Made by a program: the position numbers and the translations under genes. From Dictyostelium discoideum (taxonomy: Eukaryota): a stretch of 64,000 bases of DNA. Within the stretch, counting starts at the first letter, position 1. Every line of letters begins with the position of its first letter. The DNA is taken from NCBI GenBank assembly GCA_000004695.1, contig CM000153.2, forward strand, positions 3,744,001-3,808,000, in the 5' to 3' direction. Below the pieces are notes generated by a model. The model saw nothing but the letters and a program-made list of their open reading frames with translations. It was not told the DNA's origin and did not search any database. Of the stretch, positions 6,011 to 61,569 are shown piece by piece.

Positions 6011-9000
6011 CAAAAACTAAATGAGATTATAAAATTACAAAAATCAGTACTTCAACAAAAAACAATTACAACATCATCATCAAATACTATTTTCTTAAAA
6101 TTACAAAGTAATATACCATCAGAACGTAAAGAAGGTTTAACATTATTTAAAAAGGAGTATTGTTCAAAAACAGGAAAAGAAAAAGAAGAGACAACAACTA
6201 GTACTGATTTCAATAGTATTTCAAAATCATTTTCATCAACAATTTATCAACGTTTAATTGATTCTGATGGTTCAATTGTAAAGGAAGCTTGGAATTTACC
6301 ATCATTAAATTTAATAGTTTCACCAAAAGAATTATTAAAAGCAAGTATTGAATTCTTTAAAGTTCAATCATTCTTAAATGATAAGAAATTATTAGATACA
6401 GTTTTATCAACAATAACAAGTGTAGTTGTCAATCAATCTTCAAATTCTTCTTTAACACCAGATTTTGTTTCAATTTTATTACCACAACTTTTAGATATTT
6501 CAACCACTACCACTACCACTGCCACTTCAATAATAAAGAAATTAAACAAAGATATTCATCCAATTTTTAATAATATTACATCATCAAATATAGAATCATT
6601 AATTAAATCAATTTCAACAAATTTAGATAAAGAATCAAATATTACTTTTATAAATCAAATTTCAAAATCAACTTTTTCAACTTTTAAATCTGATATTTTC
6701 ATAATATTAATTTTATTAAATTCAATAATAAGTTGTAATAATAATAATAATAATAAGAAAAATAATAATAATTTAATTTACCAAATGTTTAATATAATAG
6801 TAGAAATTTCAAAATCATATTTATCAAAAGAAGAATCAATCATAACTAATATTAATAATTTACAAGAAGTTTATAAAATAATTAATGAAAATAATAATAA
6901 TAATTTTAATTTAAAACAACAAATTAGTTTAATTTGTTCATTATTATCAATAGCGATTGATTCTTTATTTACAATTTCACCAGAACAATTTATGAAACAA
7001 CTTCAAAATTCATCGTTATCATCTTCATCAAATACAATTGAGGAGAAAATGATTAAAGAAATTCAAAATATTTGTAAATTAATATTTAATAGTAAAATTA
7101 CAAATATTGATTTAGTATTAAGAAGTATTGTAAAGAAATTCTTTGGTAATCAATTAGTATTCTTTAAATTTTTATCACAATTTTGGGAAGTCAATGAAAA
7201 TAGTGAAAATCAAGATATTACAACCATTTATCAATCACTTTGCCTTAGTGGAATTTTAGTAAACTCAAAATCATTCAATCGTTACCTTATAAATAATAAT
7301 CAAGCAGTAGCTTTAATTCCATATTTATTATTATTAAAAAATCAAGATTCCTCAATTAGATCAACTTCCCTTGATTCAATTCAAGAGATTTATAAACAAA
7401 TTAAGTCTTCATCAATTGAAGCATCATCTTCAACAACAACATCAAATAGATTAAATTTCTATACATCAAATCAACCAACTATTGAATTAAAAGTTTTAAT
7501 TAAATTCTTGGCTCAATTGGTTCAATATAAGAATGAAATTACAATGGATAAAACATTTTTGGATAGTTATTTCTCAAAAGTTTTATTCAATTCTCAAATT
7601 AGTTCAAGTTCTAAAGCTTCTTCAAGTAGTGATGATGATGATGATGATGATGACGATGTCGATCAAGATGTATCAAAAATGACTAAACAAGATATTGAAT
7701 TAATTGGTAAATTCTTAATTTCAAGTTCATTACTTATTGAATCATTATCAAGTAGATTAACAATGTTACAATCATTACAATCTATTAAAGATGATGTTAC
7801 ATTTGTTGAAGTTACCATCAACTATATTAGCCAATTATTGGAGAATGTTAAAAATGCCACTCTTACATATGATGAATCTTTAATTTTAGATATCCTCTTA
7901 AAGAGATTAGGTCAAACATCAGTACTTACAAATCCAAAAACCAAGAAACAATCATTATCATTATTCATTTCATCTTTATCAATTTCAAATGAATTAGATT
8001 TGACTATTGCTGGTGGTGGTAATGATAAACCAATTAAATATACACCATTGGTTGCCTTAATTGGTTCAATTAATAAATCATTATTATTAACTGTACCAGT
8101 TAAAGAACAAATTGGTATTGTTGAAACAGTACTTTCTTATTTCTTCTCTGAGAGTAATCAAATTAAACAATTGGCAAAGAATACTTTATTATCCGTATTA
8201 GTCGATGCAACTGTTATTTTACCAATGTTATTACCAGAGAAACAACCACAACAACAACAACAATCTACAACATCTTTACCAATTCCAAGATATAATTCAT
8301 TATTTGAATTGATTAGATTAAATTCATCAAAAATTAATGGTATTTCAATTTTAGTAACACCAATTTTATCAATTATTAAAAAGATGGAAACTAGTATTGT
8401 TGAAAATGTTGAAAAGGATGCATTGGAATATTGTAAACAATTGGCTATGGCATCACTTGGTTCAATTATTGATTGTTCCAGTGTAAAGGATGTTAAGAGT
8501 TTGGAAACTTCATTTGATATTTCAATTATAATTAAATGTGTTGAATCATCAAATAATCTTCAAACTTGTAGTAGTGCATTAATATTACTCTCAAACATGG
8601 CTTCTAAATTCCCACAAAAATTATTCAAATTTATGGAATCAATTATAAAGATGATTAAATTCGTATTGACCAATGGTGATGATAATTTCTCATTCATGAT
8701 CTTGGAGAGATTCTTAATTCAATTATTACCAAGTTTGGTCAAACAAGGTATTTCATTGGTTCAAATCTTTAAATTATTCTTGGATTCGTTCTCTTCAATT
8801 CCAAAGAAATTCCGTTTACAATTATTCAATTGTATTTGTCAATCGGTCGCTTATAAACAGTTACATATATTGTTTAGTTTAATTCTTACAAAGAAGATTC
8901 AAGATTTACGTATTATCACTAATAAATTGAAACATTTAGATAAAGATACCATAATGAGCTCTGATGAACAAATTAAAGAAGAGATCGATTATGAACAATT

Positions 9001-13210: not shown

Positions 13211-15155
13211 AAAAAAATTGAAATAAGATCCCCCAGAGATAGATTTGAGTGAATAAAAAGAAAAAGGATTACAGTGCCACAATAAATATTTTTTTTTTTT
13301 TTTTTTTTTTTTTTTGTGTGGTAAAGTGTGGGTGTGGTGAGTGGGTACTTTTTTTTTTAATTTGTTGGTATTCTATTTAAATAAATATTATGTATAAATT
13401 TATTTATGAAAGATTTTATAATAAAAAGGAGAGTGGGTGAATTTAATTGTGCTTGGGAGTTTTTTTTTTTTTTTTTTTTTTTTTTATGTGTGCTTGATTT
13501 CCACTACTATTATTTTTATTATTTACTTCCACAATTAAATATTTTTTCTTTGTAGTTAGTGTTGAATTATAATGATGTTATATGATTTTTTGTTTGCGAG
13601 AAATAAAAGTAGTAAATTAATGTGTGAATGTATGTTTTCTAATATTAAAAAAAATAAAAAAATAATAAAAATAATAAAAAATAATAAAATAAATAATTTT
13701 AAATTTTTAAAAATAAAAATAAATAAATAAATAAATAATAAATAAAAATAAATAAATAAATAATATTGTTATTGTTATTATTGCCAATTAATAATTTATA
13801 ATTTCAAAAAAAAAAAAAAAACAATTGAAGTATTTAAATACATTTTGTTTGATGGTAAATTTCATTCCATAAAAAAAAAAAAAAAAGAAAATAAAATAAA
13901 AATAAAATAAAATTATAAAAAAAAAAAAAAAAAGAAAATAATAATAATAATAATAATGGTAATAATAATAATAATAATAATTATATTAATAACCACAACC
14001 TATTTTAGCCAGTTTATATTGTTTTAGTGTGGGTTATCATATGACAGTTTTATTTTGATTTTTTTTTTTTTTTTTTTTTTTTTAATCACACACTACACAC
14101 TCACACCACCCAAATATAAAAAAAAAAATAAAAAAAAAAGAAAAACAGCTTCAAGTTGTGGGGGTAATAAATCAAAATAACCCAAAACAACAATTCAAAT
14201 ATTTGAAACTATTTACTTGCCAAGTGGCAGGCTTTAATCAATAAAAAAAATAAAATTAAGTTTTTATTTTATTTGAATTTAGTTCTAAAAGAATTCTTGA
14301 GTGGGGTATTTTGATTATTTTAGTTTATTTTTAGGATGGTAATGTTGTTGTCGAGAAAATATATATAGAAGATCTCGATGTTGAAAAAAAAAAAAAAACT
14401 ACATACACATATATTTTGATGATTGATTAGAGTGCTGTTTTTTTTGTTGTTGTTTTTTTTTGTTGTTGTTGTTAGGTAGCGATTAAGATTATGATGATGA
14501 TGATTATTATTTTTATTAATCAATTTTTAAAATAAAATTATAATGAAATATGGTGTGTGTGAAGGGGCGTGTGTATTATTTTAATAGGATGAATGTAAGT
14601 GGGTGTGAATTTTATGTGTGTGTTGTTTGAACTTAGTGTGTCATAATATCATTTTTTTTGTGGTTTGTTATTTTATAATTTTTTTTTTTTTTTTCCTCTG
14701 TTCTATTTTTAACAAAACATAAAAAAAAAAAAAAAAAAAAATCAATAAAATCACCACCCTTATTATTTTAAATCAAAAATTTAAGTATATAAATATAGAA
14801 ATTAAATATATAATAAATAAATTAAAAATAACAACACCAACTATACAAACCATACATTTTATTATTATTATTATTGTTTTTAAAATTTAATTATAAAATT
14901 AACCAAATTAATAAATCAATCGATAATCAATAAATATATAGCGCTTTTGAAATAAGATTAAAAGATAATAAAATTTAAAGGAAAAAAAAAGAATTTCATC
15001 CTTATTTCAAGTAATTTTAGTGTTTAATTTATTTTTATTTTTGATTGATTAATATCACATTTAAAATCCTTTTTTTTTTTTATTTTTATTTTTAAATTTT
15101 TTAATACTTTTCCACTTTTTTTTTTCTTTTTTTTTTTATCTTGAATCTTAATTTA

Positions 15156-15220
<65 letters not shown>

Positions 15221-15607
15221 TTCGAGTACCACTTCTTTTCTGATTATACTCATTTCACAAAACAAAAAAAAATAAAAAAATAAAAACATAAAACATTTTC
15301 AAAGTTTAGAGTTTTTTTTTTTTTTTTTTTTATTACTGGGTATGTATTATTAATTTTATTTTTAGTAACTATTACCAACAATATAACAACAAACCAAAAC
15401 TATAATGAAAAAATATTAAAATGAATATAATCCAATTAATAAATCAATCAATAAAACCAACAAATTAAAAAAAAAAGAAAAAATTAAAGGAAATAACCAC
15501 CCTCTTACATAGTGTTGATAAAAAAAATGCACTGGAAATAAAAATAATAATGATAATGATAACAATAAAACTAGGTCGAGATTATACACAAGATTTAATT
15601 AATAAAT

Positions 15608-15636
15608 GTGGGAGGGGAGGGGTAGGGGGAGGGGGT
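15608..15636 (+). promoter_or_regulatory. G-quadruplex-forming motif GGGAGGGGAGGGGTAGGGGGAGGGGG in AT-rich intergenic DNA
   Basis: Five or more runs of at least three G within 29 nt; this is exceptional in a genome of about 78% A+T. Confidence 0.4.
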
Positions 15637-16092
15637 TTAAATGGGATTTTTCTTTCCTATGAGGGAGTGGTGTAAAAAACAGTTTTTTTTCTTTTAAAAT
15701 GTGTGAGTAGTATGGTTTTTTTTTTTTTTTTTTATTTTTTTTTTTTTTTTTCTAAAACTATGAATACTAACCAAAACAACACAAACCACACAATTATGCA
15801 TTTTAAAAATCATTTGATTTTCTATGTGAAATCTATATTGATTTATATTCTATATATAGTATGTTTTTTTTTTTTTCTTTTTTTTTTTTTTAAAAAAAAT
15901 ATAAAGAGAAACTGATTGATAATTCAGATAATAGAAATAAATAAAATTTTTTTCTTTTTTTATTTTCATACACAGATTATATGATGAATAATTCAAATTC
16001 ACCAATGACTATTTTTGTAAATATTATAATAATAATAATATATTTGGGTAACATTACACAATTAAAAGGATGGGTGAATTTTAATATTAGAT

Positions 16093-23529: not shown

Positions 23530-23902
23530 ATGTCATCAAATAAATCTTCATCCAAAAAAAGAAAAAATGAGATAAATTCAAATGCCACTCACAATATTTT
23601 ATCTGTTACCACTAATAACAATAATAGTGAAAAGCAAACTAAAAAATTAAAATCTACTCTTTCAGAATCAACCACAACGAAAACTATCACCTCACCACAA
23701 CAACAACAACAACAACAACAACCACAACAAACCCAAAATAATAAAATAAATATTAAAGAAATCTATAATATATTTAATAATACAAATAATGCAAATAATA
23801 CAAATAATTCAAATAATAACAATACAGTTAGCGCAGACACATGGGATGGCACAACTCCAATTGAAAATTTAACAATTGGACAATTAATATCCTCACTAAA
23901 TG
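23530..23902 (+). CDS. Large nucleolar-type protein (Urb2/Npa2-like), exon 1
   Basis: ATG at 23530; GTAATT donor at 23903. Confidence 0.6.
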
Positions 23903-23963
23903 GTAATTATATCTTAAAAATATATTATCCTTTTATATATATATATATTTCAGCTATACTAAT

Positions 23964-24005
<42 letters not shown>

Positions 24006-24019
24006 CCAAAATTTTATAG

Positions 24020-25075
24020 GCAGACAACATAATCTTAGAATTATTGTTGCAGAGTATATGAATTCATTGAATAGATTAATCGGATTTACAGAAAAAACAC
24101 CATATCTCCTAAATTGGGTTTTAGATAATTTATCAAAATCATTTATAAATTGGAAACAACCTGAGAAATCTGAGCAATTAATTCAAAAAGGTATTGAACC
24201 ATTATTCTTTGAGGAAAGATATTGGACATTATTAGAAAGTTTGGTTACAAAACAAATTTCATTACAACAACAACATCAGCAACAACAACAACAACAACAA
24301 CAAAATGATACAACAAATAATTCAACCTCAACATCTAATTCTTCAAATTCAATTAAATTGTCAAATGAATATTTACAATTTATATTTGAAATTATATTAA
24401 ATAGTATTAGAAATATTGATTTAAAATTAGATATTTTCAATTCAACAAATTTACAACAACAACAACAACAACCTATCATTATATCAAAAAAGAAAAAGAA
24501 TATTAATATTCCATATCAACTTACAACATCACCACCACCACCAATTAAATTATTAGAATTTTCAAAAAGAATATCTACATTATTAATTAAAATATTTTCA
24601 AGTGATGAATTAATGAAAGAGATACCATTATTATTAGAGAATTTAATTCCATTATCAATTAAATATTTAAGAAATTCAAAAGATTTATTATTAAAAAATG
24701 AATCAACAATAATCTCAATCATTGATTTATATCAAACTTTATTCCAATATTTATTAGTTCAAACTAAATTAGGTATAAATTATAAATCAATGTTTACAAC
24801 AACTTTATCAACACTATTACCACATATAATAACACTTTTAAATACTTTGGAAAATATATCATCAATAATTCCAACATCATCTCAATTGATTGAAACAATT
24901 GATCAATTTTTAAAATGGACATTATATCATCCAGAATCTCATTGGGATTCTTACTCTTTTATTTTATTCTCTGATTGGTTAAAAAAGATTGTAAAAGATA
25001 CAACATCAAAAGAAAAAAGTAAAGAAAATGAAAAATTAAAATCAAAAGAAAATGAAAAAGAAAAAGAAAAAGAAA

Positions 25076-25107
<32 letters not shown>

Positions 25108-26416
25108 GAAAAAGAAAGAGAAAAACAAAAAGAAAAAGAAAAAGAAAAAGAAAAAGAAAAAGAAAAAGAAGATTTACAAATTTATCAACCTCAATTAATT
25201 TTAGATTGTTTATTACAAATTATTAATGGTAATAATCAAGTTTTGAATAGAGTTGTTTGTTTTAATGAAAAAGATACAGTATCTAGTATTTTAGTGAATT
25301 CACTTTATAAATTTTTAATTTACTTTATTGAACAATATGAAAGTTTTGGATATAGACATTTTAAAGATATAGTACAATGGTATGATAGTGCTAATCATAA
25401 GGATGAAAAATTCATTGAGTTTGCTTACTTTAGAAAATTATTTTCATTAATTAATACACCAACTCTATTATCAAATAATCCAACCTATTATGAATCGGTT
25501 GCAAAATTATTAAATCAAGTTTCAATTTTAAATATCTTTCATATTAGTAATCGTCATCAAGTTGATTATCTTTCAAACACTGTTGCAAATAGTTTTTATT
25601 TATACCTTTCAGCATCAAAGAATAATAATCAAAATAATCAAAATAATCAAATTAAACAAGAAATTATATTGAATGGTATTTATAAATGTTTAACATCAAT
25701 AATTAAAATTAGTAATACATTAATTGGTAATAAATTAAAGGATATAATTTTACCACATATTTGGTCAAATAACATATCAACATCAACAACAACAACAACA
25801 AAAAATACTAAAAATGGTGATTATGATGATGATAATGAATCATTATTATTTAATAATGGAAGATGTGAATTTTTAAAATCAACATTTGATAGTTATTTTG
25901 AAATTCGTCAAATGGATACACTTTTAACAATGGTTTTCCAATCTATTATTAGTGTACGTTCATTTGGTAGTGATAGTAAATTTTCAATTAATCAAGATTT
26001 CTTAAAGCATATTTCAAAATTATTCTCAAATTTACCATTTGGTCAAGTACCAATCATTTGGAGTTTATTTTTAGAAGAATGGCAAGGTTATTATATTACT
26101 CAATTAAATGAATCAAATAATAAAAGTTTAGGTGATGATAATGACCAAAGTATGTTGGACCCAATGTTTTCATATCGTTTAGAATACTTTATTAAACTTT
26201 GGTCAACTTTTCTTGATGGTATTACAATTTCATCATTTGTTTATAAAATGATTTTACAATTATTGCCAAATACTTTTCAATCAATTGTTGATCCAATTTT
26301 AAATGAAATTTATAAATCTTCTTCTGCTTCTTCTTCTTCTTCTTCCTCTTCGAGAAAATCTTCAAAATCATCTTCAAAATCATCTTCCTCAAAATCATCT
26401 TCTTCGAAATCAAATG

Positions 26417-26476
<60 letters not shown>

Positions 26477-29344
26477 GTATTATAAATTTATTAAAATTAT
26501 ATTCAAGTTTTCTTCAAGTTCATTCGTTTATACATCGTCAAACAATTATAAGTGGTAAAAGTGGTGAAAATGAATTTGGTTATCATCCTCAACAATTTTA
26601 TTATTATCAATTATGTGAAAAAGAATTAGAATTTAGTAAAGTTATTGAGTATTTAATTAATAATAATAATTTTGAAAATAATTATTCAAATAAATTAATA
26701 GCATCAAAATTATTAATTCAAAGAGTTCAACAACTTCATTCAATTTTATCATCAGTTTCAATTGCAAATTATAAAAGAAATATTAATAATAATAATATTA
26801 GTAGTAATAATAATAATTATAATTATATTAATCAAAAATCAAATAATAGTAAAAATATTGAAAATGATAAAATTAAATATATTTCATCATATTCAAATCA
26901 ACAATATTCACCAAAAGATATTGAATATGAATTAATTGATATAGTATATTATTTATTAAACAATTTCATTAAATTAATAAATGATAATAATCTTTTATTT
27001 AAAAAGTTCAATACTTTAAAACAACAACAAATTCAAGATAAATTAGAACAACAGGATAACAATAATAAAGATGAAGAAAATGAAGATAAAGAAAAAAAAT
27101 TAAATTTATTAATTTATCAAAGTAAATTATTAATTGATAATATTAGTACATGGTGTGAATATTCAACAATTGAAAATATTCAAAATATTTTAAAATTCAT
27201 TATTTCACCGCCAATTGAAATTAATAATGATGATAATAATAATAATTGTAAATTAAAAACAACCAACTCAATAACAACAACATCAATTTATAAAGAATTT
27301 CAAAAATTATTATCAAATCCATTATTTTTTGAATTAAAAGTTTTTCAAAATAATTTTCCAATTGTGTTATGTCAAATGGAACGTGATATAATTACTAAAG
27401 AATTAATTAAATCAAATAAATTATTTGAAAAAGTTACAGAAATATTTAATGATGTTCAAGAAAGATTAATTAATAGTGGTAGTCTAACACCATCAAATAC
27501 ATCCTATGCTGAAATTATTATTGAAATTCAAGAATGTTTTTCAAAGAAAATTACATTAAAAGATTTTAATTTATCTGATACTTCAAAATGGGAAAGATTA
27601 ACATGGTTAGTTTCATTGGCACCAAGTTTTCATCCACTTTATATTCCAATTGAATTAATTGGACCATTAGTATTATCATCAATTGCAATTAATCATATTG
27701 GTGTTTTATTATTAAAACAAATTCAAGATACTTCAACCATTGATAATAATAATAATGAAAAAGATTTAGATTATATTTATAAATTAATTTTATCATCAAG
27801 AAGATTTATTAAATTTTGTTTTGAAAAGGATCAATCAAGATTAGTTCAAATTATACCAATGAATGTTTGGATTGATTTAATTTTTAGTTCTAGAATGTTT
27901 GAATCAATTGATACAAAATATCCAATTTTATTTACAAGTTTAGAAATTCAACATCATTATAATACTGAACTTTGGAAGCATTCACCAATGGAATTAAAAA
28001 AATTATCTGATAAAATTTTAAATAAAAAATCAAATAATAACAATAATAATTCTGCAGCAGCAACAACAACAACAACAACAACAATAACAACTTCACCAAA
28101 AATTATTTCAACAAATTTAGATTTTAATACAATTAAACCTTATTTAATTGCTGGTATTTTAAAATCAATTTCAACAACAAATTCAAATAATCAAATGTTA
28201 TCAGATATTTTACCACCAGATCTTCAATCAATTATAAAGAGTGTTGAACCAGATATTTCAATATTTTATGAGAAAATGTTTAATCATTGTTCAAGTAATC
28301 CAACATTTAATAATATTGCACCATTCTTTAATGAATATCAAGCTGAATTCTCTTTATTGGTTTATCATCTTTGGTATCAATTATATTTCAATGCAATTGA
28401 TAACGAATCATTATCAAAATTATTAATAACTGTTTCATTCTCTGGTGTATTTATTTCTGGTTTATCAAGTAAAGGTAGTGGTTTAATTACTTCTGTTGAT
28501 AAATATTCTTTAATTCTTCAAAATTCAATTATATCATTATTAGATTTATTCTCACGTTGGTATAGTAAAATACCTGCAAATCAAAGTCAAACAAGCTCAT
28601 CATCATCGTCATCATCGCCAATGATGATTGATTCATTGCATGCATTATCATTACTTTCAAAAATGTTATCTTTATATCCAGAGGATTCTAAACTTTATAA
28701 ATCAATTTCAGCTGCAATTATTCAATTCTTCCAATTAAATAATCAATTAGGTTACCTTTTAAATTCAATTACTACAACTATGGAATCATCATCAACTTTA
28801 TCATCGTCATCAACTAATTCAATTGCAATTCAATCTCAATCATTTAATTTACTTGGTTATTTTATTAGTTCAATCATTGGTACAAAACGTATTAATTTAT
28901 TAAAGAATCCAATTAAATTAGTTACTGCAATTGTAAACATTTTAAATCAAACAAACTCTGAATCATTAATTGTATCAGGTATTAATTTACTTTGTAAATT
29001 AATGAGTGTCAATGTTATTGATGTTCATGGTGAATCTATTCCAATCATTTTAAGTGTAATGAGTTTCTTTTCAAGTCCATTCATTTATTCAACACCAGTT
29101 AGAAGTATTGCAAGTTTTAGTACTGAAATCATTCCAAATTGTCCAATGTCATTATTTATTAAAGAGAAATTATCTGCTGATAATAATATCAATAATTTCA
29201 GCAGCAGCGGCAGTAATGGTTTGAAATTTAATAACATCACACCTTTAATTTTAAATTCACTCTATAAATTACTTTATATTATTCTTAAATTTAGAAATAA
29301 TGAATTAACAAAATATTTACCATCTTTTGTTTCTTCTTTAAGAT
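24020..29344 (+). CDS. Large Urb2/Npa2-like protein, exon 2
   Basis: TATAG acceptor at 24015-24019. The ORF is continuous to the GTACGT donor at 29345. Confidence 0.65.
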
Positions 29345-29435
29345 GTACGTATTAAATTATTTTTATAGTTTTATTATTATTCAGTTGCAAAAAAAAAAAA
29401 ACTATTAAAATATTAACTAACTTTTTTTTTTATAG

Positions 29436-29623
29436 TTTTATTATACTCAGTTGCAAACGAAACAAATAAATTAGGTAATGAAAAATCAATTAAAAAAGTT
29501 GGTAGATTATTAGAATTATTTAGTTTAAGTAAAAATTGTGATCAATATTTCCAATATTTAATTGTGGATTATGTTCAATTAATTAGATATTCAACAACTG
29601 CAATCAACAATGCAAATAATAAC

Positions 29624-29673
<50 letters not shown>

Positions 29674-29887
29674 TAATAATAATAATAGCAATAAGAGACA
29701 ATATGTTGGTCCACAATATCATCTATCAACCGAAATGAGAAATTTACTTTTGCCTGGTGTGTTCTCTTTAATTCAACAAACAAATAATAGTAGTAAAGAA
29801 TTATTTAATGCTTTGGAAGATACAGGAAAAGGAATTTTCCAAAATATTATTTCTCAATATCAATCATATAAATATACTGGAAAATAA
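29436..29887 (+). CDS. Large Urb2/Npa2-like protein, exon 3 (conserved C-terminus ..LLPGVFSLIQQ..LFNALEDTGKGIF..YKYTGK)
   Basis: TATAG acceptor at 29431-29435. The phase-1 junction gives ..SLRFLLYSVANE.., and the three exons total 6150 nt (2049 aa). The Urb2 assignment is from recall of the C-terminal motif and is only moderately certain. Confidence 0.55.
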
Positions 29888-30332
29888 ACAATTTTATTTA
29901 GGGATTCAGAATACTCTTTTTTTTTTCATTTTAATATATTTTTTTTTTTTAAACTTAATTTTTTATTAAATATTTAATATTTTAATTTTAATTTGTTTTG
30001 TTTTATTCTTCTTCGTTGTACACAGGGTCACAGGTTTCCCGCCATTTTTTGAAAATGGGGTCTATCCCTTTAAAATAAAAAACAATATGCTAAAAATTTA
30101 TCTCTTTTTATATCCAATGTTGAATTAATATTATCGACGCATGTCAAACTCTACATTATCAAAGATATCAACCAATGGATTACAGAGGTTGACCATCCTC
30201 ACCAATTGCAGTGGGTGTAATTGGAGCCGTGTTATCTAATGAATTTGGTGTGTAGTATTTTAGTCTCCAATTTATTTTGAAACTGTGAAAGTTTCCTGTT
30301 GTTATTGTTGCTGTTGCTCTTTCTGTTTTTGA

Positions 30333-30370
<38 letters not shown>

Positions 30371-31166
30371 AGTATCTTGGTAATATAGGTATTTGTGGTG
30401 GTGTTTCTAATGTTGTATTTGTTAGTGTTGTTTGAACATTTCGATATTGATAGTATTTTAACCATGTTGGTTTGTTGGGTGTTAAAGCAGAAAAAAAATT
30501 AAGATGGTAAAAGAAACATTAACTCAAACCACAATTTTTAAAAAAGGATTTAATGCACTTTTCCAAAATAGTGTTTGAATTGATTACCATAGAATTCCAA
30601 CACGTAAAACACATTCAACAAAGAGAGAGACTAGAATTGCAGAAGCATTAGGAAGAGGTAATTTCATTAGTGCTAAGGACAATCGCTAGATAACATAATT
30701 TTATACGCATAAAATGTTTTTTAAAAAAAAAAAAAATTAAAAAAATAAATTAAAAAAAAAAAAATAAACGGTGTTCTCTTTTTAATAAATATGCATTTTC
30801 TGTTTGTTCTTGTTTATTTTAAATAAAGTTATAAATAAAATTTTTAATTAAATTAAAGAAAAAAAAAAAAAAAACAGAATGGTTGCATTCATTTTTTTTA
30901 CTTTATATCATTTTGTGTATTTTTGAGAGCTCTATTTTACAAACTAAATTCATACTAAAAATAAATAAAATTAAATCGTTCTTAAAAAAAAAAACCAAAA
31001 AGAAAAAATAAATAAAAAAAAACATTAGAGAATATGGATAATAAAGGGGGGAATATAGTATAAAATTTTTAAATAATTAATTAATTTTTTTTTTTCCTTT
31101 TTTTTTTTAATAATAATAATTTTATTACTATTTATTTTTTTTTTCAAAATAAAAAATTTAATCCTT

Positions 31167-31204
<38 letters not shown>

Positions 31205-31455
31205 AAAAGGAAACAATAAATTAAAAAAAACAAATAAAATAAAGTAATAAATAATAAAAAAAAATAATCACAAAAAAAAAAAATGATCAAAAAAAAAAAA
31301 TATTCATAAAAAAAACGAATACTGTTCCGGCTCGTTTTTTTAAAAAAAAAAAATTGGCAAAAAATTTTTTCAATTTTTTTTTTTCAGTTGACGACCTCTC
31401 AAAATCAATTAAAATTTTTTTAGTTTTGTTTTGTTGAATCCTTAATACATTCAGA

Positions 31456-31458
31456 ATG
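31456..31458 (+). CDS. rpl18a: Ribosomal protein L18a (eL20), putative one-codon first exon (ATG)
   Basis: ATG followed directly by GTGCGT. This is the only in-register way found to supply a start codon to exon 2, so it is tentative. Confidence 0.35.
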
Positions 31459-31763
31459 GTGCGTATGCTATGACAGATTTTTTATATCACTATAATTATA
31501 TAATAATACATAAATAATTAGAATATATATTTAGATCAATAATTCAATGATTGTTATAAAGATTGACAAAGATTGATAATAATTGATGATAGATTATTGA
31601 TTGAGATAAAAATTTAGATATTGGATATAGGATACAACATAAAACATCATCATCATCATCCATCAATATCATCAACAATTATGATAATAAATAATATAAT
31701 AAAATGAAGTTATGAGAATAGGATACTAATAGAAATAATTACAAAATAATTTTAAATAATTAG

Positions 31764-32276
31764 CCTATCCACGAATTCCAAGTTGTTGGTCGTCACGTTC
31801 CAACTGAAAGAGATGCAAACCCAAAAATCTACAGAATGAGACTCTTTGCTCAAACCTCAATCCACGCTAAGAGCCGTTTCTGGTATTTCTTATCAAAGAT
31901 TGTTAAGATGAAGAAATCCACTGGTGAAATCCTCAACGTCACTGAAATCTTTGAAGATAAACCACAAAAAGTTAAGAACTTTGGTGTATTCATCAGATAC
32001 AACTCTAGATCTGGTACCCACAACATCTACAAGGAATACAGAGATCTCACTCGTTGTGGTGCTGTTTCTCAAATGTACGACGAAATGGCCTCACGTCACT
32101 CTGCTCGTGAATCATCCATCCATATCATTGATATCAAGGAAATCGCCGCCTCATTAACCAGACGTGCCAACACTAAACAATTCCACGATTCAAAGATTAA
32201 ATTCCCATTAACTCACAGAATTGCTAAATCAAAATCAACCTTTGTTGCCAACAGACCAAATACCTTCTTCTGTTAA
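31764..32276 (+). CDS. rpl18a: Ribosomal protein L18a (eL20), main exon
   Basis: TAG acceptor at 31761-31763. [81 protein letters not shown] aligns closely to human RPL18A. Confidence 0.9.
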
Positions 32277-32480: not shown

Positions 32481-32999
32481 TTAAATTAATTTACATGTTT
32501 TAATTTTGAATTCATTTTCTTTAAGAAGATTTTTTGATTCTTCTTTTTTAATAAGATAAATAATAGATATTATTATTACCAGAGCAAAACATACAGAACC
32601 TACTATTATACCAGCTAGTTGAGCTTTAGTTAATTTGGAATCGTTAATGGTAGTACAAATTGAATTATCACTTGAGGATGCAGATTTACTATCAATCAAA
32701 ACAGAAAAATCAGGATCTATGATTATTGAATTTGCATAATTTGGTAAAATGATACCAATGAATGATTGAGATGATGACGAACTTGAAATTGAGTTGATTG
32801 ATGAATCTAATAGTTCATTTGATTTTGTTTTTACTAGAAAGTCAACTATTGCTCTTTTAATAAATCTACCATATAAAGAATGATCATCAACTTTAATTTT
32901 TAAATAATTTGATATATCATAGAATTCATCAGTTTTTTCACCAAATTGTTTATCTGAACAAATATCATCAGTCTTTGAAGAAGAAAGTGATGCAGGCAT
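32481..32999 (-). CDS. Hypothetical single-pass membrane protein (TM helix LAGIIVGSVCFALVIIISIIYLI near the C-terminus)
   Basis: ORF 32481..33047; the first ATG is at 32997-32999, and there is no database-style homology. Confidence 0.4.
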   Translation of the reverse strand: MPASLSSSKTDDICSDKQFGEKTDEFYDISNYLKIKVDDHSLYGRFIKRAIVDFLVKTKSNELLDSSINSISSSSSSQSFIGIILPNYANSIIIDPDFSVLIDSKSASSSDNSICTTINDSKLTKAQLAGIIVGSVCFALVIIISIIYLIKKEESKNLLKENEFKIKTCKLI

Positions 33000-33151
33000 A
33001 ATCAATTGTAATCCATTTAATTTATTTTTAAATTTATATTGGGACAATTCAATTGTTTATTTTATAGTTGATGGATTCATTGTTAAATTTTGATTTGCAA
33101 ATATAATATTACTCTTTTCTTTATTTATAAATTATTTAGACGATCCTTTAA

Positions 33152-33525
33152 TTAATAAAATTCAACTTGATTGTTCATTTGTTGATGATTCGTTTGAAAA
33201 AATGAATCAGTCTGACTAAATCCTGATGAAAATCCTTGACTATCATAAAGTTTAATAAAAGTGATTACATAATTTTGAGAAGCGCAAACATTTGAAATAT
33301 TAACTACAATTTCATATTGACCTAAAAATTCATCACCACCAATTCTTGAAAGAGTTGTTAATTGATATTTATAAATTGATCCATCCAATTCACCCCTAAC
33401 TATAATTTCACCACCTTTAAATCCATTAATCTGATCTTCAATCTCTAATAACCATTTTACATAATTTGGATTAATTGAACTACTTTTAATAATTTTTTTA
33501 AATATTGGCCCATATAAATCAAATT
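33152..33525 (-). CDS. Hypothetical protein, exon 2 (stop at 33152)
   Basis: TTTTAG acceptor at 33526-33531. The phase-1 junction joins ORF 33591..33845 to ORF 33152..33388 in frame. Confidence 0.45.
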
Positions 33526-33601
33526 CTAAAATTAAAAATTTTAATTTTTATATATTAGTGTTTTACTTTATATATATTAATTAATTTTTTTTAATACTTA
33601 C

Positions 33602-33833
33602 TTGAAGAAGTTACATTTAATTGATAAGAATCAGATAAATAATAACTATAACTTGAATATAAACCCATAACAAAAGCATATGATAATTGTCCACTTTTAA
33701 AATTTGCAGGAATAGTAAATTCTACTTGAAACATTTTAATTGTTGAATTCCATATCGCATAGTTGGTTTTATCTACATTTTGATCATTAAATATAGCAAT
33801 TGAGGCATTTGGATCGGTATGATTTAAATGCAT
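33602..33833 (-). CDS. Hypothetical protein, exon 1
   Basis: ORF 33591..33845. GTAAGT donor at 33600-33601 (minus strand); the first ATG is at 33831-33833. Confidence 0.4.
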
Positions 33834-34074
33834 TATATTGTCCACTGATCTATTAGTTGTATCGATATTATTAAAAAGAAAAGATACATTTTTAATTTTC
33901 TAAATTTATTTTTTTTTATTTTTTTTTTATTTTTTTTATTTTCGAAACCAGGAAAAAAAAAATAAAAAATAAAAAAAAACTAATAATAATTATAAATAAA
34001 ATTTAAGGTATAACATAAAAATGAATATCGCAAAATAATAAAAAAAAAAAAAAATAAAATAAATAAAAAGTAAT

Positions 34075-36013: not shown

Positions 36014-36487
36014 ATGGGATCTGAAGACCAACAACTACAACCACAAAATAATGGACCAATATACGGTCAACCAACATTAAAACAACAACAATTATACCAA
36101 CAATTAAATTCTCTACAACAACCACCACCACCACCACAACCAATTATAATTAGTTCAATAAGTGGAATGGTTCCAATTAGTAAAATTAAAATTAGAAATA
36201 ATGTAAATTGTGTTGGGAATTATACAACTTATAAAACTGATTACCCATTTGATTTGAATGGTGTAATGAGTGCTAAAGAATATATTAATTATATCAACGA
36301 TTTCAATAAAATAGTATCAATCAAAAAATATCCAATCATTACAATTGTGGTTCTCCAATTACTTTTAACTCTTCTAATAGTTATATTTGCAATTCAAAAT
36401 CTTTTCATACCTTTAGTAGTTTCCTTATCAATTTGTATATCATTTTCCTTTATTATAATAATTTTATCAATTTATATGGTTAGAAAG
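36014..36487 (+). CDS. GOLGA7/Erf4-family protein B (tandem paralogue), exon 1
   Basis: Same architecture as protein A (soluble N-terminal region plus TM hairpin), with a GTATGT donor at 36488 at the equivalent position after ..VRK. Confidence 0.5.
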
Positions 36488-36502
36488 GTATGTTAAACAT
36501 TA

Positions 36503-59753: not shown

Positions 59754-61569
59754 TAAAAAAAAAAATAAAAAGAAATTTGTTAATAAAAAGATATCAATTA
59801 CCTTTTTTTATTAATTACTTGTATATAGTGTATGTTCTATATACAAAAGAAATTTCTTTTCTTAATTTTTTTTTTTCTATGGTTTTTTTTTTTTTTTTTT
59901 TTTGATTTTTTTTCTTGTAAACCTTGAATTAATGCCAAACAAAAAACTTTTTTTATCAACAATTAAAAGAAGAGAAAAAAAAAAAAACTGTTTAAAAAGG
60001 GTGATGTATATTTATAATAAAGCTTAAAAAAAAAAAAAAATAAAAATAAAAAAAAAAAAAAAAATTAAAAATAAAACAAATTTTTTTATTTTAAAACAAA
60101 TCCCTAAAAGGGAAAAATTTAAAAAAATATATTTTTTTTTTTTAAAAAATTAATATTTTAGATCCCAGTGATATCCAAATATATATAACCTATAGCATAT
60201 ATATATAAATTTTTACAATTCATAATTTCATATTTTTTATTGTTTTTTTTTTATTTTTTTTTAACCATTTTATGATTTTAAAAAAAAATAATAAAAAAAA
60301 AAAAAAATAAAATAAAATAAAATAAAATAAAATTTTAAAAAGGAATAAATGTAAAATAATGAACATATGGTCTTTATAATAGTAATGGGTTAAATTATTT
60401 TTTTTTTTTTTTTCTTTTTCATTATAATTTTAATAAGTTCCTATTCGTCTTTTTATTTTAATATTAACCATATTAAACAATACCTTGTACTAATAAATTG
60501 GTTCAAGTTCACAAGCAGGTGAAAAAAAAAAAAAAAAACACCAAAATGTTAACATTGATATCAAGGAGAAAATTTGGTATTTCCTGGTAGGAGATTAGGG
60601 TGTTGGACGATATTAAAATTATAATTATAGGTTAGTTTGATTTATTCCATAGAAAAAAAAAAAGTTATTTTTTAATTTATTGCCGGGTTATGAAAATTAG
60701 CCAATAAACATTACTGAAATAGTAAAAAATATTTACCACACCATTTTTTTTTTTTTTTTTTTTGAATAATTACACTTTTACCCCTCAATTAAAATACAGA
60801 TTTGGTTTTTATCAAATGAAATAAAAAACAAATAAATTTGTATTTTTAGATTTTATTTTTAGATTTTATTAACAATTTTTTAATTTATCTCGATATTATT
60901 TTACTGTGGATAAAAACTTTTTTATGTCAATAATTTTATTTTATTGTTTTAAAAAAAGAAATGATTAAATAAATTAGTAATACATTATTAAAAATTATTA
61001 AAAAATGAATATATATTTTTATATTTGGTTATAAATTCTTTTATTATTTTTTTGTTTAAAAGAGATATTAATTTATTTATTTGTCTCCCACAAAAAGTAA
61101 AATTTAACAACATTAAAAAGTTGAAAAACGAATCGATATTTGGGAAACCCAAAAAAGACTCCATACTTTGAGATGGGAAATTTATTCTTGAGCGGCAATG
61201 ACACAATCAAAAACGATAACCTCTCAAAAATAAGTGGTGAAGTTATATTTGACACAGAACCTGTGGTACATCACTTCCCGTTTATGGCTTTAAGACCACT
61301 CGTCAAAAAAAAATTAATATGATCACAATAATTATTTAAATATAAAACTATTTAAAATAAAAATTATGGGAAAAAAAAAAAAAAAAAAAAATTATTTTCA
61401 ATTTTATTTTAAAATTTTTTTTTTTGGTTTTTAGGTTTAAATTAAGACTGGTCAAAAAAAAAAAAAAAAAAAAAGTTTTCAATTTTTTTTTTTTTTTATT
61501 TTATATTTTTTTTTTTTCAAAATTAATTAAATAATCTTTTTTTTATTCATATATATATTTTTTATAATA

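Follow-up and report, generated by a model that had tools for sequence, protein, structure and literature searches.

A GC-richer island between an Urb2-like gene and rpl18a in Dictyostelium discoideum: a possible relic of lineage-specific coding sequence

The spacer between an Urb2-like gene and rpl18a on chromosome 4 of Dictyostelium discoideum AX4 holds an island of unusual base composition. It occupies positions 30000-30720 of the window (the whole stretch of 64,000 nucleotides that was analyzed), corresponding to chr4:3,774,000-3,774,720. All positions refer to the window unless another locus is named. The features of the island and its two flanking genes are as follows.

23530-29355 and a second exon ending at 29887, plus strand: Urb2-like gene.
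30004-30150, minus strand: L piece, the sole part colinear with D. cf. discoideum; its codon score has p = 0.25, without a codon footprint.
30183-30518, minus strand: M segment, a 112-codon open frame without ATG, T/A/N/P-rich and with AAC-type repeats.
30232-30465, minus strand: ORF of 77 aa, N/S-rich.
30306-30370: hexanucleotide microsatellite that reads (GCTGTT)n along the plus strand and (AACAGC)n along the minus strand.
30395-30403: short run of triplets, (GTG)n / (CCA)n, whose copy number varies among assemblies, by +3, +6 and +9 nt.
30504-30692, plus strand: R segment, on the strand opposite to M; an ORF reading MVKETLTQTTIFKKGFNALFQNSV, an in-frame TGA, then IDYHRIPTRKTHSTKRETRIAEALGRGNFISAKDNR and a stop.
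30590-30628, within R: inverted match to D. cf. discoideum (locus L001, about 8610-8648).
30699-30760, minus strand: promoter-like context of long T runs and AAAAAACATTTT, followed by an ATG at 30710-30708.
ATG at 30710-30708, minus strand: 20-codon ORF, MRIKLCYLAIVLSTNEITSS and a stop.
ATG at 31457, exon 2 at 31764-32276: rpl18a.

The original prediction had described a GC-richer island of about 0.7 kb, and this was borne out by the composition of the window. The G+C content of 30000-30720 is 0.325 (32.5%), compared with a median of 0.163 for the 309 non-coding 300-bp windows of the 64 kb, and the ten non-coding windows highest in G+C all fall within 29951-30451 (maximum 0.36); the island is the richest non-coding stretch of the 64 kb. 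CG dinucleotides, also predicted, are present (9 in 721 bp) but not enriched, with 18.5 expected and an observed/expected ratio of 0.49. The plus strand has a GC skew of up to +0.5 and an AT skew down to about -0.47, making the minus strand A/C-rich; CA/GT-rich runs occur inside the island, a local hairpin (CCATTTT/AAAATGG) is found at 30043-30059, and A-rich DNA lies on both sides. The repeat given in the prediction as (GCTGTT)7 at 30325-30372 is approximately right: TRF placed the array at 30306-30370 (period 6, 10.8 copies, 86% matches), and six perfect GCTGTT units lie at 30334-30369. The three peptides quoted as broken ORFs could all be located, these being the 77-aa ORF, the 112-codon frame and MRIKLCYLAIVLSTNEITSS. 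Note that an A/C-rich minus strand leaves its three frames nearly stop-free from composition, so that the length of an ORF here is weak evidence.

Signals of the kind expected at the ends of a Dictyostelium gene are found at both margins of the island on the minus strand. The T runs and AAAAAACATTTT upstream of the ATG at 30710 are promoter-like, and an AATAAA is present in the L piece at 30007-30002; the T runs with their ATG and the AATAAA may function as such signals. A spliced C-terminal exon, GIDPIFKKWRETCDPVYNEEE and a stop (30066-30003, minus strand), was tried and rejected, as the 116-nt GTAATC...AAAG intron candidate breaks the frame and the Trp codon is a stop in the assemblies L003 and L004. 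Read-through of the in-frame TGA in 30504-30692, as in a selenoprotein, was also rejected: there was no SECIS/Rfam match, and indels of 1-5 nt break the frame in relatives.

The neighboring genes have features of their own. In the last intron of the Urb2-like gene, a 21-nt segment of the 3' splice region, TTTTTATAGTTTTATTAT, is duplicated at 29357-29377 and 29424-29444, 67 bp apart, which gives two alternative acceptor-like sites. The first exon of rpl18a apparently comprises no more than the ATG; the intron after it has 304 bp and starts with GTGCGT (31457-31763). The block at 31301-31456, preceding the rpl18a ATG (AACGAAT, GTTCCGGCTCGTTTTT, and further on CAGTTGACG and CTCAAAATCAATTAAAATTTTTTTAGTTTTGTTTTGTTGAATCCTTAATACATTCAGA), is 79-96% conserved in all group-4 species sampled, and the spacer outside it is not conserved; the block is probably the core promoter and 5' UTR of rpl18a. 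Downstream of rpl18a, a ComC-family gene (32481-33900, minus strand) encodes 1348-1418 aa in L004, L010, L001, L007, L008 and L009. In the window and in L002 it lacks about 1.1 kb at 33123/33147 and a further 2.1 kb or so at 33898, both missing from inside the gene, and the gene call there consists of two small fragments; the gene looks truncated in the lineage of AX4 and L002. An exact look-up of two window ORFs, of 172 aa (32481-32999) and 160 aa (36014-36496), found no record in the protein collection.

To place the island among relatives, orthologous loci were fetched through rpl18a, giving ten related loci with a total of about 205 kb. The Urb2 C-terminus used as a query for orthologous loci returned none, probably from saturation of the candidates by low-complexity words. 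The island was distributed as follows.

L002 (D. discoideum group): 100% identical.
L003 (D. discoideum group): 90% identity.
L010 (D. discoideum group): 87% identity.
L004 (D. discoideum group): 81% identity.
L001 (D. cf. discoideum): partial and rearranged.
L007 and L008 (D. citrinum): absent.
L009 (D. dimigraforme): absent.
L005 (D. firmibasis): absent.

Including the window, five D. discoideum-group assemblies carry the island, and its presence in four other independent assemblies rules out an assembly artefact. No island was found in D. purpureum, where the locus is not syntenic. In four assemblies of the D. discoideum group the Urb2-to-rpl18a spacer measures 1484-1709 bp; it has 2143 bp in D. 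cf. discoideum and 614-724 bp in the outgroups, and in a 9-way alignment the outgroups are almost wholly gapped over about 30028-30800. The short outgroup spacer and the alignment gaps indicate that the island is an insertion on the D. discoideum stem.

The partial match in D. cf. discoideum consists of two short pieces. The L piece (30007-30137) is colinear with L001 8113-8241 and 83% identical over 131 bp. In the R segment, 30590-30628 matches L001 in plus/minus orientation (85% identity over 39 bp, E = 6e-7), and the inverted stretch of L001 is 87.5% identical to L004 over 48 bp. The 39-bp match marks a local inversion separating two lineages, D. discoideum and D. cf. discoideum. An extension of the homology past about 30150 was considered and rejected, the alignment score being no higher than that of shuffles, and the remaining, equally G+C-richer stretch of L001 is unrelated to the island. 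A 107-aa gene is called at the equivalent place in L001, and its stop aligns with a stop at 30110-30108 (minus strand) in the L piece. This counterpart comprises two ORF pieces with a coding-like score of +0.10 and third-position G+C of 0.13-0.15, separated by an AT-rich gap; every 107-aa reconstruction reads (ATT)29 as a 29-residue poly-Ile, which makes the gene model weak. A second copy of the L piece, about 110 bp long, is found at L001 19234-19322, 11 kb away. At L001 18613-19487 there is a tandem duplication of the gene found at window 36014-36496, the junction being about 870 bp of novel DNA, and this junction contains the L-piece copy as well as an (AAT)n run.

We determined rates of evolution by comparing the window with L010, L003 and L004.

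Island: 0.058-0.082 substitutions per site; 1.7-2.2 gap openings per 100 bp.
Urb2: 0.040-0.050 substitutions at third codon positions; 0.4 gap openings per 100 bp (whole CDS).
Neighboring intergenic DNA: 0.050-0.117 substitutions per site; 2.5-2.8 gap openings per 100 bp.

The island evolves at the neutral rate, with an indel density like that of intergenic DNA. Substitutions in the candidate frames are evenly spread over the three codon positions (5/6/3, 4/1/4 and 7/6/7). Indels of 1, 2, 4, 5, 7, 19 and 37 nt occur in the island, and outside the two microsatellites the length of most is not divisible by three. Indels of 1, 4 and 5 nt destroy the R frame in L003, L004 and L010, and the M frame is broken differently in each of the same three assemblies. 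The ORFs are unlike in every assembly, and long ORFs are lacking in a majority-rule ancestor. L004 has GTG in place of the ATG at 30710, and the ORF that starts there has 20, 53, 59 or 0 codons depending on the assembly. A current gene would have an intact ORF conserved in frame and an excess of third-position substitutions; the island has neither. The hexamer repeat, a short tandem unit whose copy number varies among assemblies as in a microsatellite, is 108 nt longer than the window's in L003 and 48 nt shorter in L004, a range of about 2 to 30 units. Polarized substitutions run from G/C to A/T at 0.078 per site and in reverse at 0.029, from only 27 events. The implied equilibrium G+C of about 27%, compared with 13-16% in intergenic DNA, comes from counts (27 substitutions) that are too small to interpret.

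Codon usage was examined by testing codon scores against composition-matched shuffles, with the best of six frames taken. The M segment (minus strand) has a codon score of -0.03 and G+C by codon position of 0.37/0.53/0.16, and it differs from shuffles at p < 0.001 in its part 30373-30518 and at p = 0.004 in its part 30183-30305. The R segment (plus strand) has a score of -0.04 and third-position G+C of 0.18, also with p < 0.001 relative to shuffles. The significance of M and R resembles that of real CDS controls; non-coding controls (two catalogued lncRNAs and two intergenic stretches) and the L piece gave p values of about 0.05-0.25, all at least 0.046. The codon-like character that had been predicted for the minus strand is found in 30183-30518 as a codon-usage footprint (p <= 0.004 relative to shuffles), although the periodicity of the M segment is partly due to its degenerate (AAC)n make-up. 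The footprint occurs together with disabled frames (stops and frameshifts), the combination that characterizes a pseudogene or gene relic.

Similarity to known proteins was sought with the masked translations of the island (three minus frames and three plus-strand ORF stretches). These gave no match at E <= 10 among 5.8 G proteins. The 112-codon frame had no match by HMMER among 1.84 G representatives, and Pfam gave only sub-threshold noise for all island ORFs and the L001 peptides. The exact island ORFs are absent from the protein collection, in which a 41-aa control from the same window, DDB_G0285945, is present. A conserved core, GGGRAACCTNTGACCCTGTG, was set aside: its 12 metagenome matches fall on contigs with 43-63% G+C and could not be lengthened, and a viral scan found none.

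The island was also analyzed as a possible RNA gene and as a possible transposon. Rfam gave no match at gathering thresholds in the whole window and none at E <= 10 inside the island. The DUSE motif (CCCAYAA) does not occur near the island; its nearest instance is inside rpl18a, about 1.3 kb off. Folding energy relative to shuffles gave z = +0.23 for the plus strand and -0.61 for the minus strand, with no excess stability, and in the L piece, the only conserved part, the consensus fold has -6.8 kcal/mol with a covariation term of +0.11 kcal/mol and one doubtful pair. There are no tRNA genes in the 64 kb. No terminal repeats (TIR or LTR) were found, the only inverted repeats being AT-rich and of low complexity. 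A search for target-site duplications had been suggested at the borders near 30000 and 30720; the longest word common to both borders has 8 nt and is no better than in shuffles, so that none stands out beyond chance. No second copy of the island exists in the 64-kb window, and in the ten related loci there is only the L001 duplicate of about 110 bp. By element class, the island has no adjoining tRNA gene and no ORF1/ORF2 similarity as would be expected of TRE5 or TRE3, no terminal inverted repeats and no target-site duplication as would be expected of the DNA transposons DDT, Tdd and thug, and neither LTR/ITR structure nor gag/pol or recombinase similarity as would be expected of LTR or DIRS elements.

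Evidence on transcription comes from the AX4 catalogue of 621 lncRNAs and 162 antisense RNAs from growth and development (Rosengarten et al. 2017, PMC5295588). Catalogue positions were converted to window positions with an offset of 3,744,000, with which DDB_G0285845, DDB_G0285945, DDB_G0285899 and DDB_G0285901 each land on ATG...TAA, and which puts the window at chr4:3,744,001-3,808,000. The conversion is confirmed by the 41-aa product of 15550-15675, which bears the name DDB_G0285945 in the protein collection. The island is missing from this catalogue, the entries of chr4 skipping from 3,757,897-3,758,727 to 3,804,164-3,805,314. The catalogue left out models joined to a neighboring gene by the tiling path (PMC5295588), so absence from it suggests, without proving, that the island is untranscribed in AX4. 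The supplements of PMC5282741 have no entry at chr4:3.773-3.775 Mb. Identity of the island with the lncRNAs at chr5:1,448,325, chr4:1,756,449, chr4:3,893,613 or chr4:3,757,897 was rejected on account of unfitting neighbors or flanking genes. Elsewhere in the window, the catalogued lncRNAs DDB_G3971565 and DDB_G3970525 correspond to 13897-14727 (minus strand) and 60164-61314 (plus strand), with G+C of 20-21.5%, and the antisense RNA DDB_G3972459 lies at 15322-15863, over the 41-aa gene DDB_G0285945 at 15550-15675.

With about an even chance of being correct, our best explanation is that the island consists of the rearranged remains of lineage-specific coding sequence, which decay neutrally and carry a slippage-prone hexamer repeat. 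Under this explanation, about 0.7-0.8 kb of coding or coding-derived DNA would have been placed between the Urb2-like gene and rpl18a in the shared ancestor of the D. discoideum group, arriving after the split from D. citrinum. The source would most likely have been a small orphan gene, specific to the lineage and encoded by the minus strand. Later rearrangement would have inverted the 5' part, now 30504-30692, relative to D. cf. discoideum, and would have left the middle wholly different between the lineages. Any intact reading frame would then have been lost and neutral drift would have followed, while the AAC-type hexamer may have expanded and contracted by slippage. The higher G+C would be a legacy of origin, not upheld by selection. 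We infer that a genuine gene was the source, that the minus strand was its coding strand, and that the AX4 side is where the inversion took place. The island is restricted to one lineage, changes at the neutral rate, carries frame-breaking indels and a codon footprint, and is without homologues, a known RNA family or the hallmarks of a TE. Among the three origins put forward in the original prediction, a decayed small gene is the best supported, by the codon footprint, the disabled ORFs, the neutral rate and the lineage-specific locus. A transposon or retroelement remnant is not supported, given the lack of TE-protein similarity, tRNA gene, TIR/LTR, TSD and second window copy; nor is a structured ncRNA, given the lack of an Rfam match, DUSE, stable fold or covariation and the neutral evolution. 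As no parent or homologous protein was found, the term gene as used here draws only on composition and signals.

Some observations fit an island that was never a gene at this place, either what is left of a mobile element lacking ORFs, or filler DNA patched together in repair or template switching. The island is an insertion relative to three sister species, its middle differs wholly from that of the D. cf. discoideum lineage, with one short piece inverted, and A-rich DNA borders it on both flanks. The L001 copy of the L piece, about 110 bp long and sitting at a tandem gene-duplication junction within about 870 bp of novel DNA, runs counter to the reading as a coding relic and hints at repetitive or templated DNA. 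We nevertheless consider such an origin unlikely. No TE-protein similarity exists among 5.8 G proteins, the 64 kb has no tRNA gene whereas TRE elements target tRNA genes, terminal inverted and long terminal repeats are lacking, border words (8 nt) are no better than in shuffles, and there is no further copy in the window or in the roughly 205 kb of related loci save the L001 duplicate; moreover, the codon footprint of M and R would not be expected of filler that never coded. It is still less probable that the island is a functional, fast-evolving minus-strand transcription unit, either a young lncRNA or a young gene for a small protein such as the 77-aa N/S-rich product or a secreted short peptide. 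The promoter-like T runs with the ATG at 30710, the AATAAA at 30007-30002 and the gene call at the corresponding position of D. cf. discoideum would suit such a unit, as would a G+C well above the 17% of lncRNAs and the 13% of intergenic DNA (PMC5295588). The catalogue of AX4 lncRNAs and antisense RNAs does not contain it, though it lists two other lncRNAs of the window; substitution and indel rates are neutral, the ATG is lost in L004, the ORFs are unlike in every assembly, and none is in the protein collection.

An enhancer or insulator of rpl18a or of the Urb2-like gene is very unlikely. The rpl18a start codon is about 740 bp downstream of the island, which contains CA/GT-rich runs, and G+C-richer motifs are typical regulatory marks in AT-rich Dictyostelium spacers. 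It is, however, absent from three sister species in which the rpl18a promoter block at 31301-31456 is conserved at 79-87%, and its evolutionary rate is neutral; at 0.7 kb it also far exceeds the known Dictyostelium elements in length. We consider a structured non-coding RNA gene to be the least credible of these alternatives, with hardly any likelihood. A G+C-richer island within an AT-rich spacer and the hairpin at 30043-30059 are what might suggest it, and against them stand the empty Rfam search, the want of a near DUSE, fold z-scores of +0.23/-0.61, the lack of real covariation and the neutral rate. In all, a functional ncRNA, a current gene and a classical transposon are not supported.

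The relic of coding sequence that we favor can be compared with known kinds of Dictyostelium DNA. Many pseudogenes have been reported in D. discoideum (PMC5282741). Like unitary or orphan-gene pseudogenes (the '_ps' models of dictyBase), the island has disabled frames, a residual codon footprint and neutral rates and is confined to one lineage; unlike them, it has no intact parent or orthologous protein that could be found, and its two ex-coding pieces lie on opposite strands. It is similar to the intergenic lncRNAs of D. discoideum (PMC5295588) in being intergenic, about 0.7 kb long (the lncRNA median is 628 nt) and without a long ORF, but it is uncatalogued and has a G+C of 32.5%, compared with a median of 17% for lncRNAs (13% for intergenic DNA). 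As a short G+C-richer insertion in an AT-rich spacer of one lineage, the island resembles relics of non-autonomous transposons (thug, DDT-S) and TRE fragments; it differs from these in having no TIR, TSD, tRNA gene or TE-protein similarity and no multiple copies in the window and the ten loci. AAC-type triplet and hexamer repeats and poly-N/Q/T tracts are reportedly found in D. discoideum coding sequence. The (AACAGC)n of the minus strand is like such coding repeats in giving NS, TA or Q runs and in its highly variable length, and unlike them in lying outside any intact ORF.

The favored relic may also be one state of a D. discoideum-group orphan gene in a birth-and-death cycle, a minus-strand small protein or lncRNA still made in some lineages, with rearranged dead alleles in others. 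We think this improbable; if true, the D. cf. discoideum model or a short AX4 peptide or RNA, for example, would still be active. The island itself is ordinary and of little importance, although its length-variable hexamer repeat is a possible strain marker. It provides a dated example of gene-like DNA appearing and eroding between two conserved genes, absent from D. citrinum and rearranged in D. cf. discoideum. These data also suggest that in an AT-rich genome an island of conspicuous composition need not be a concealed gene, RNA or transposon, and can instead be a young insertion undergoing neutral decay.
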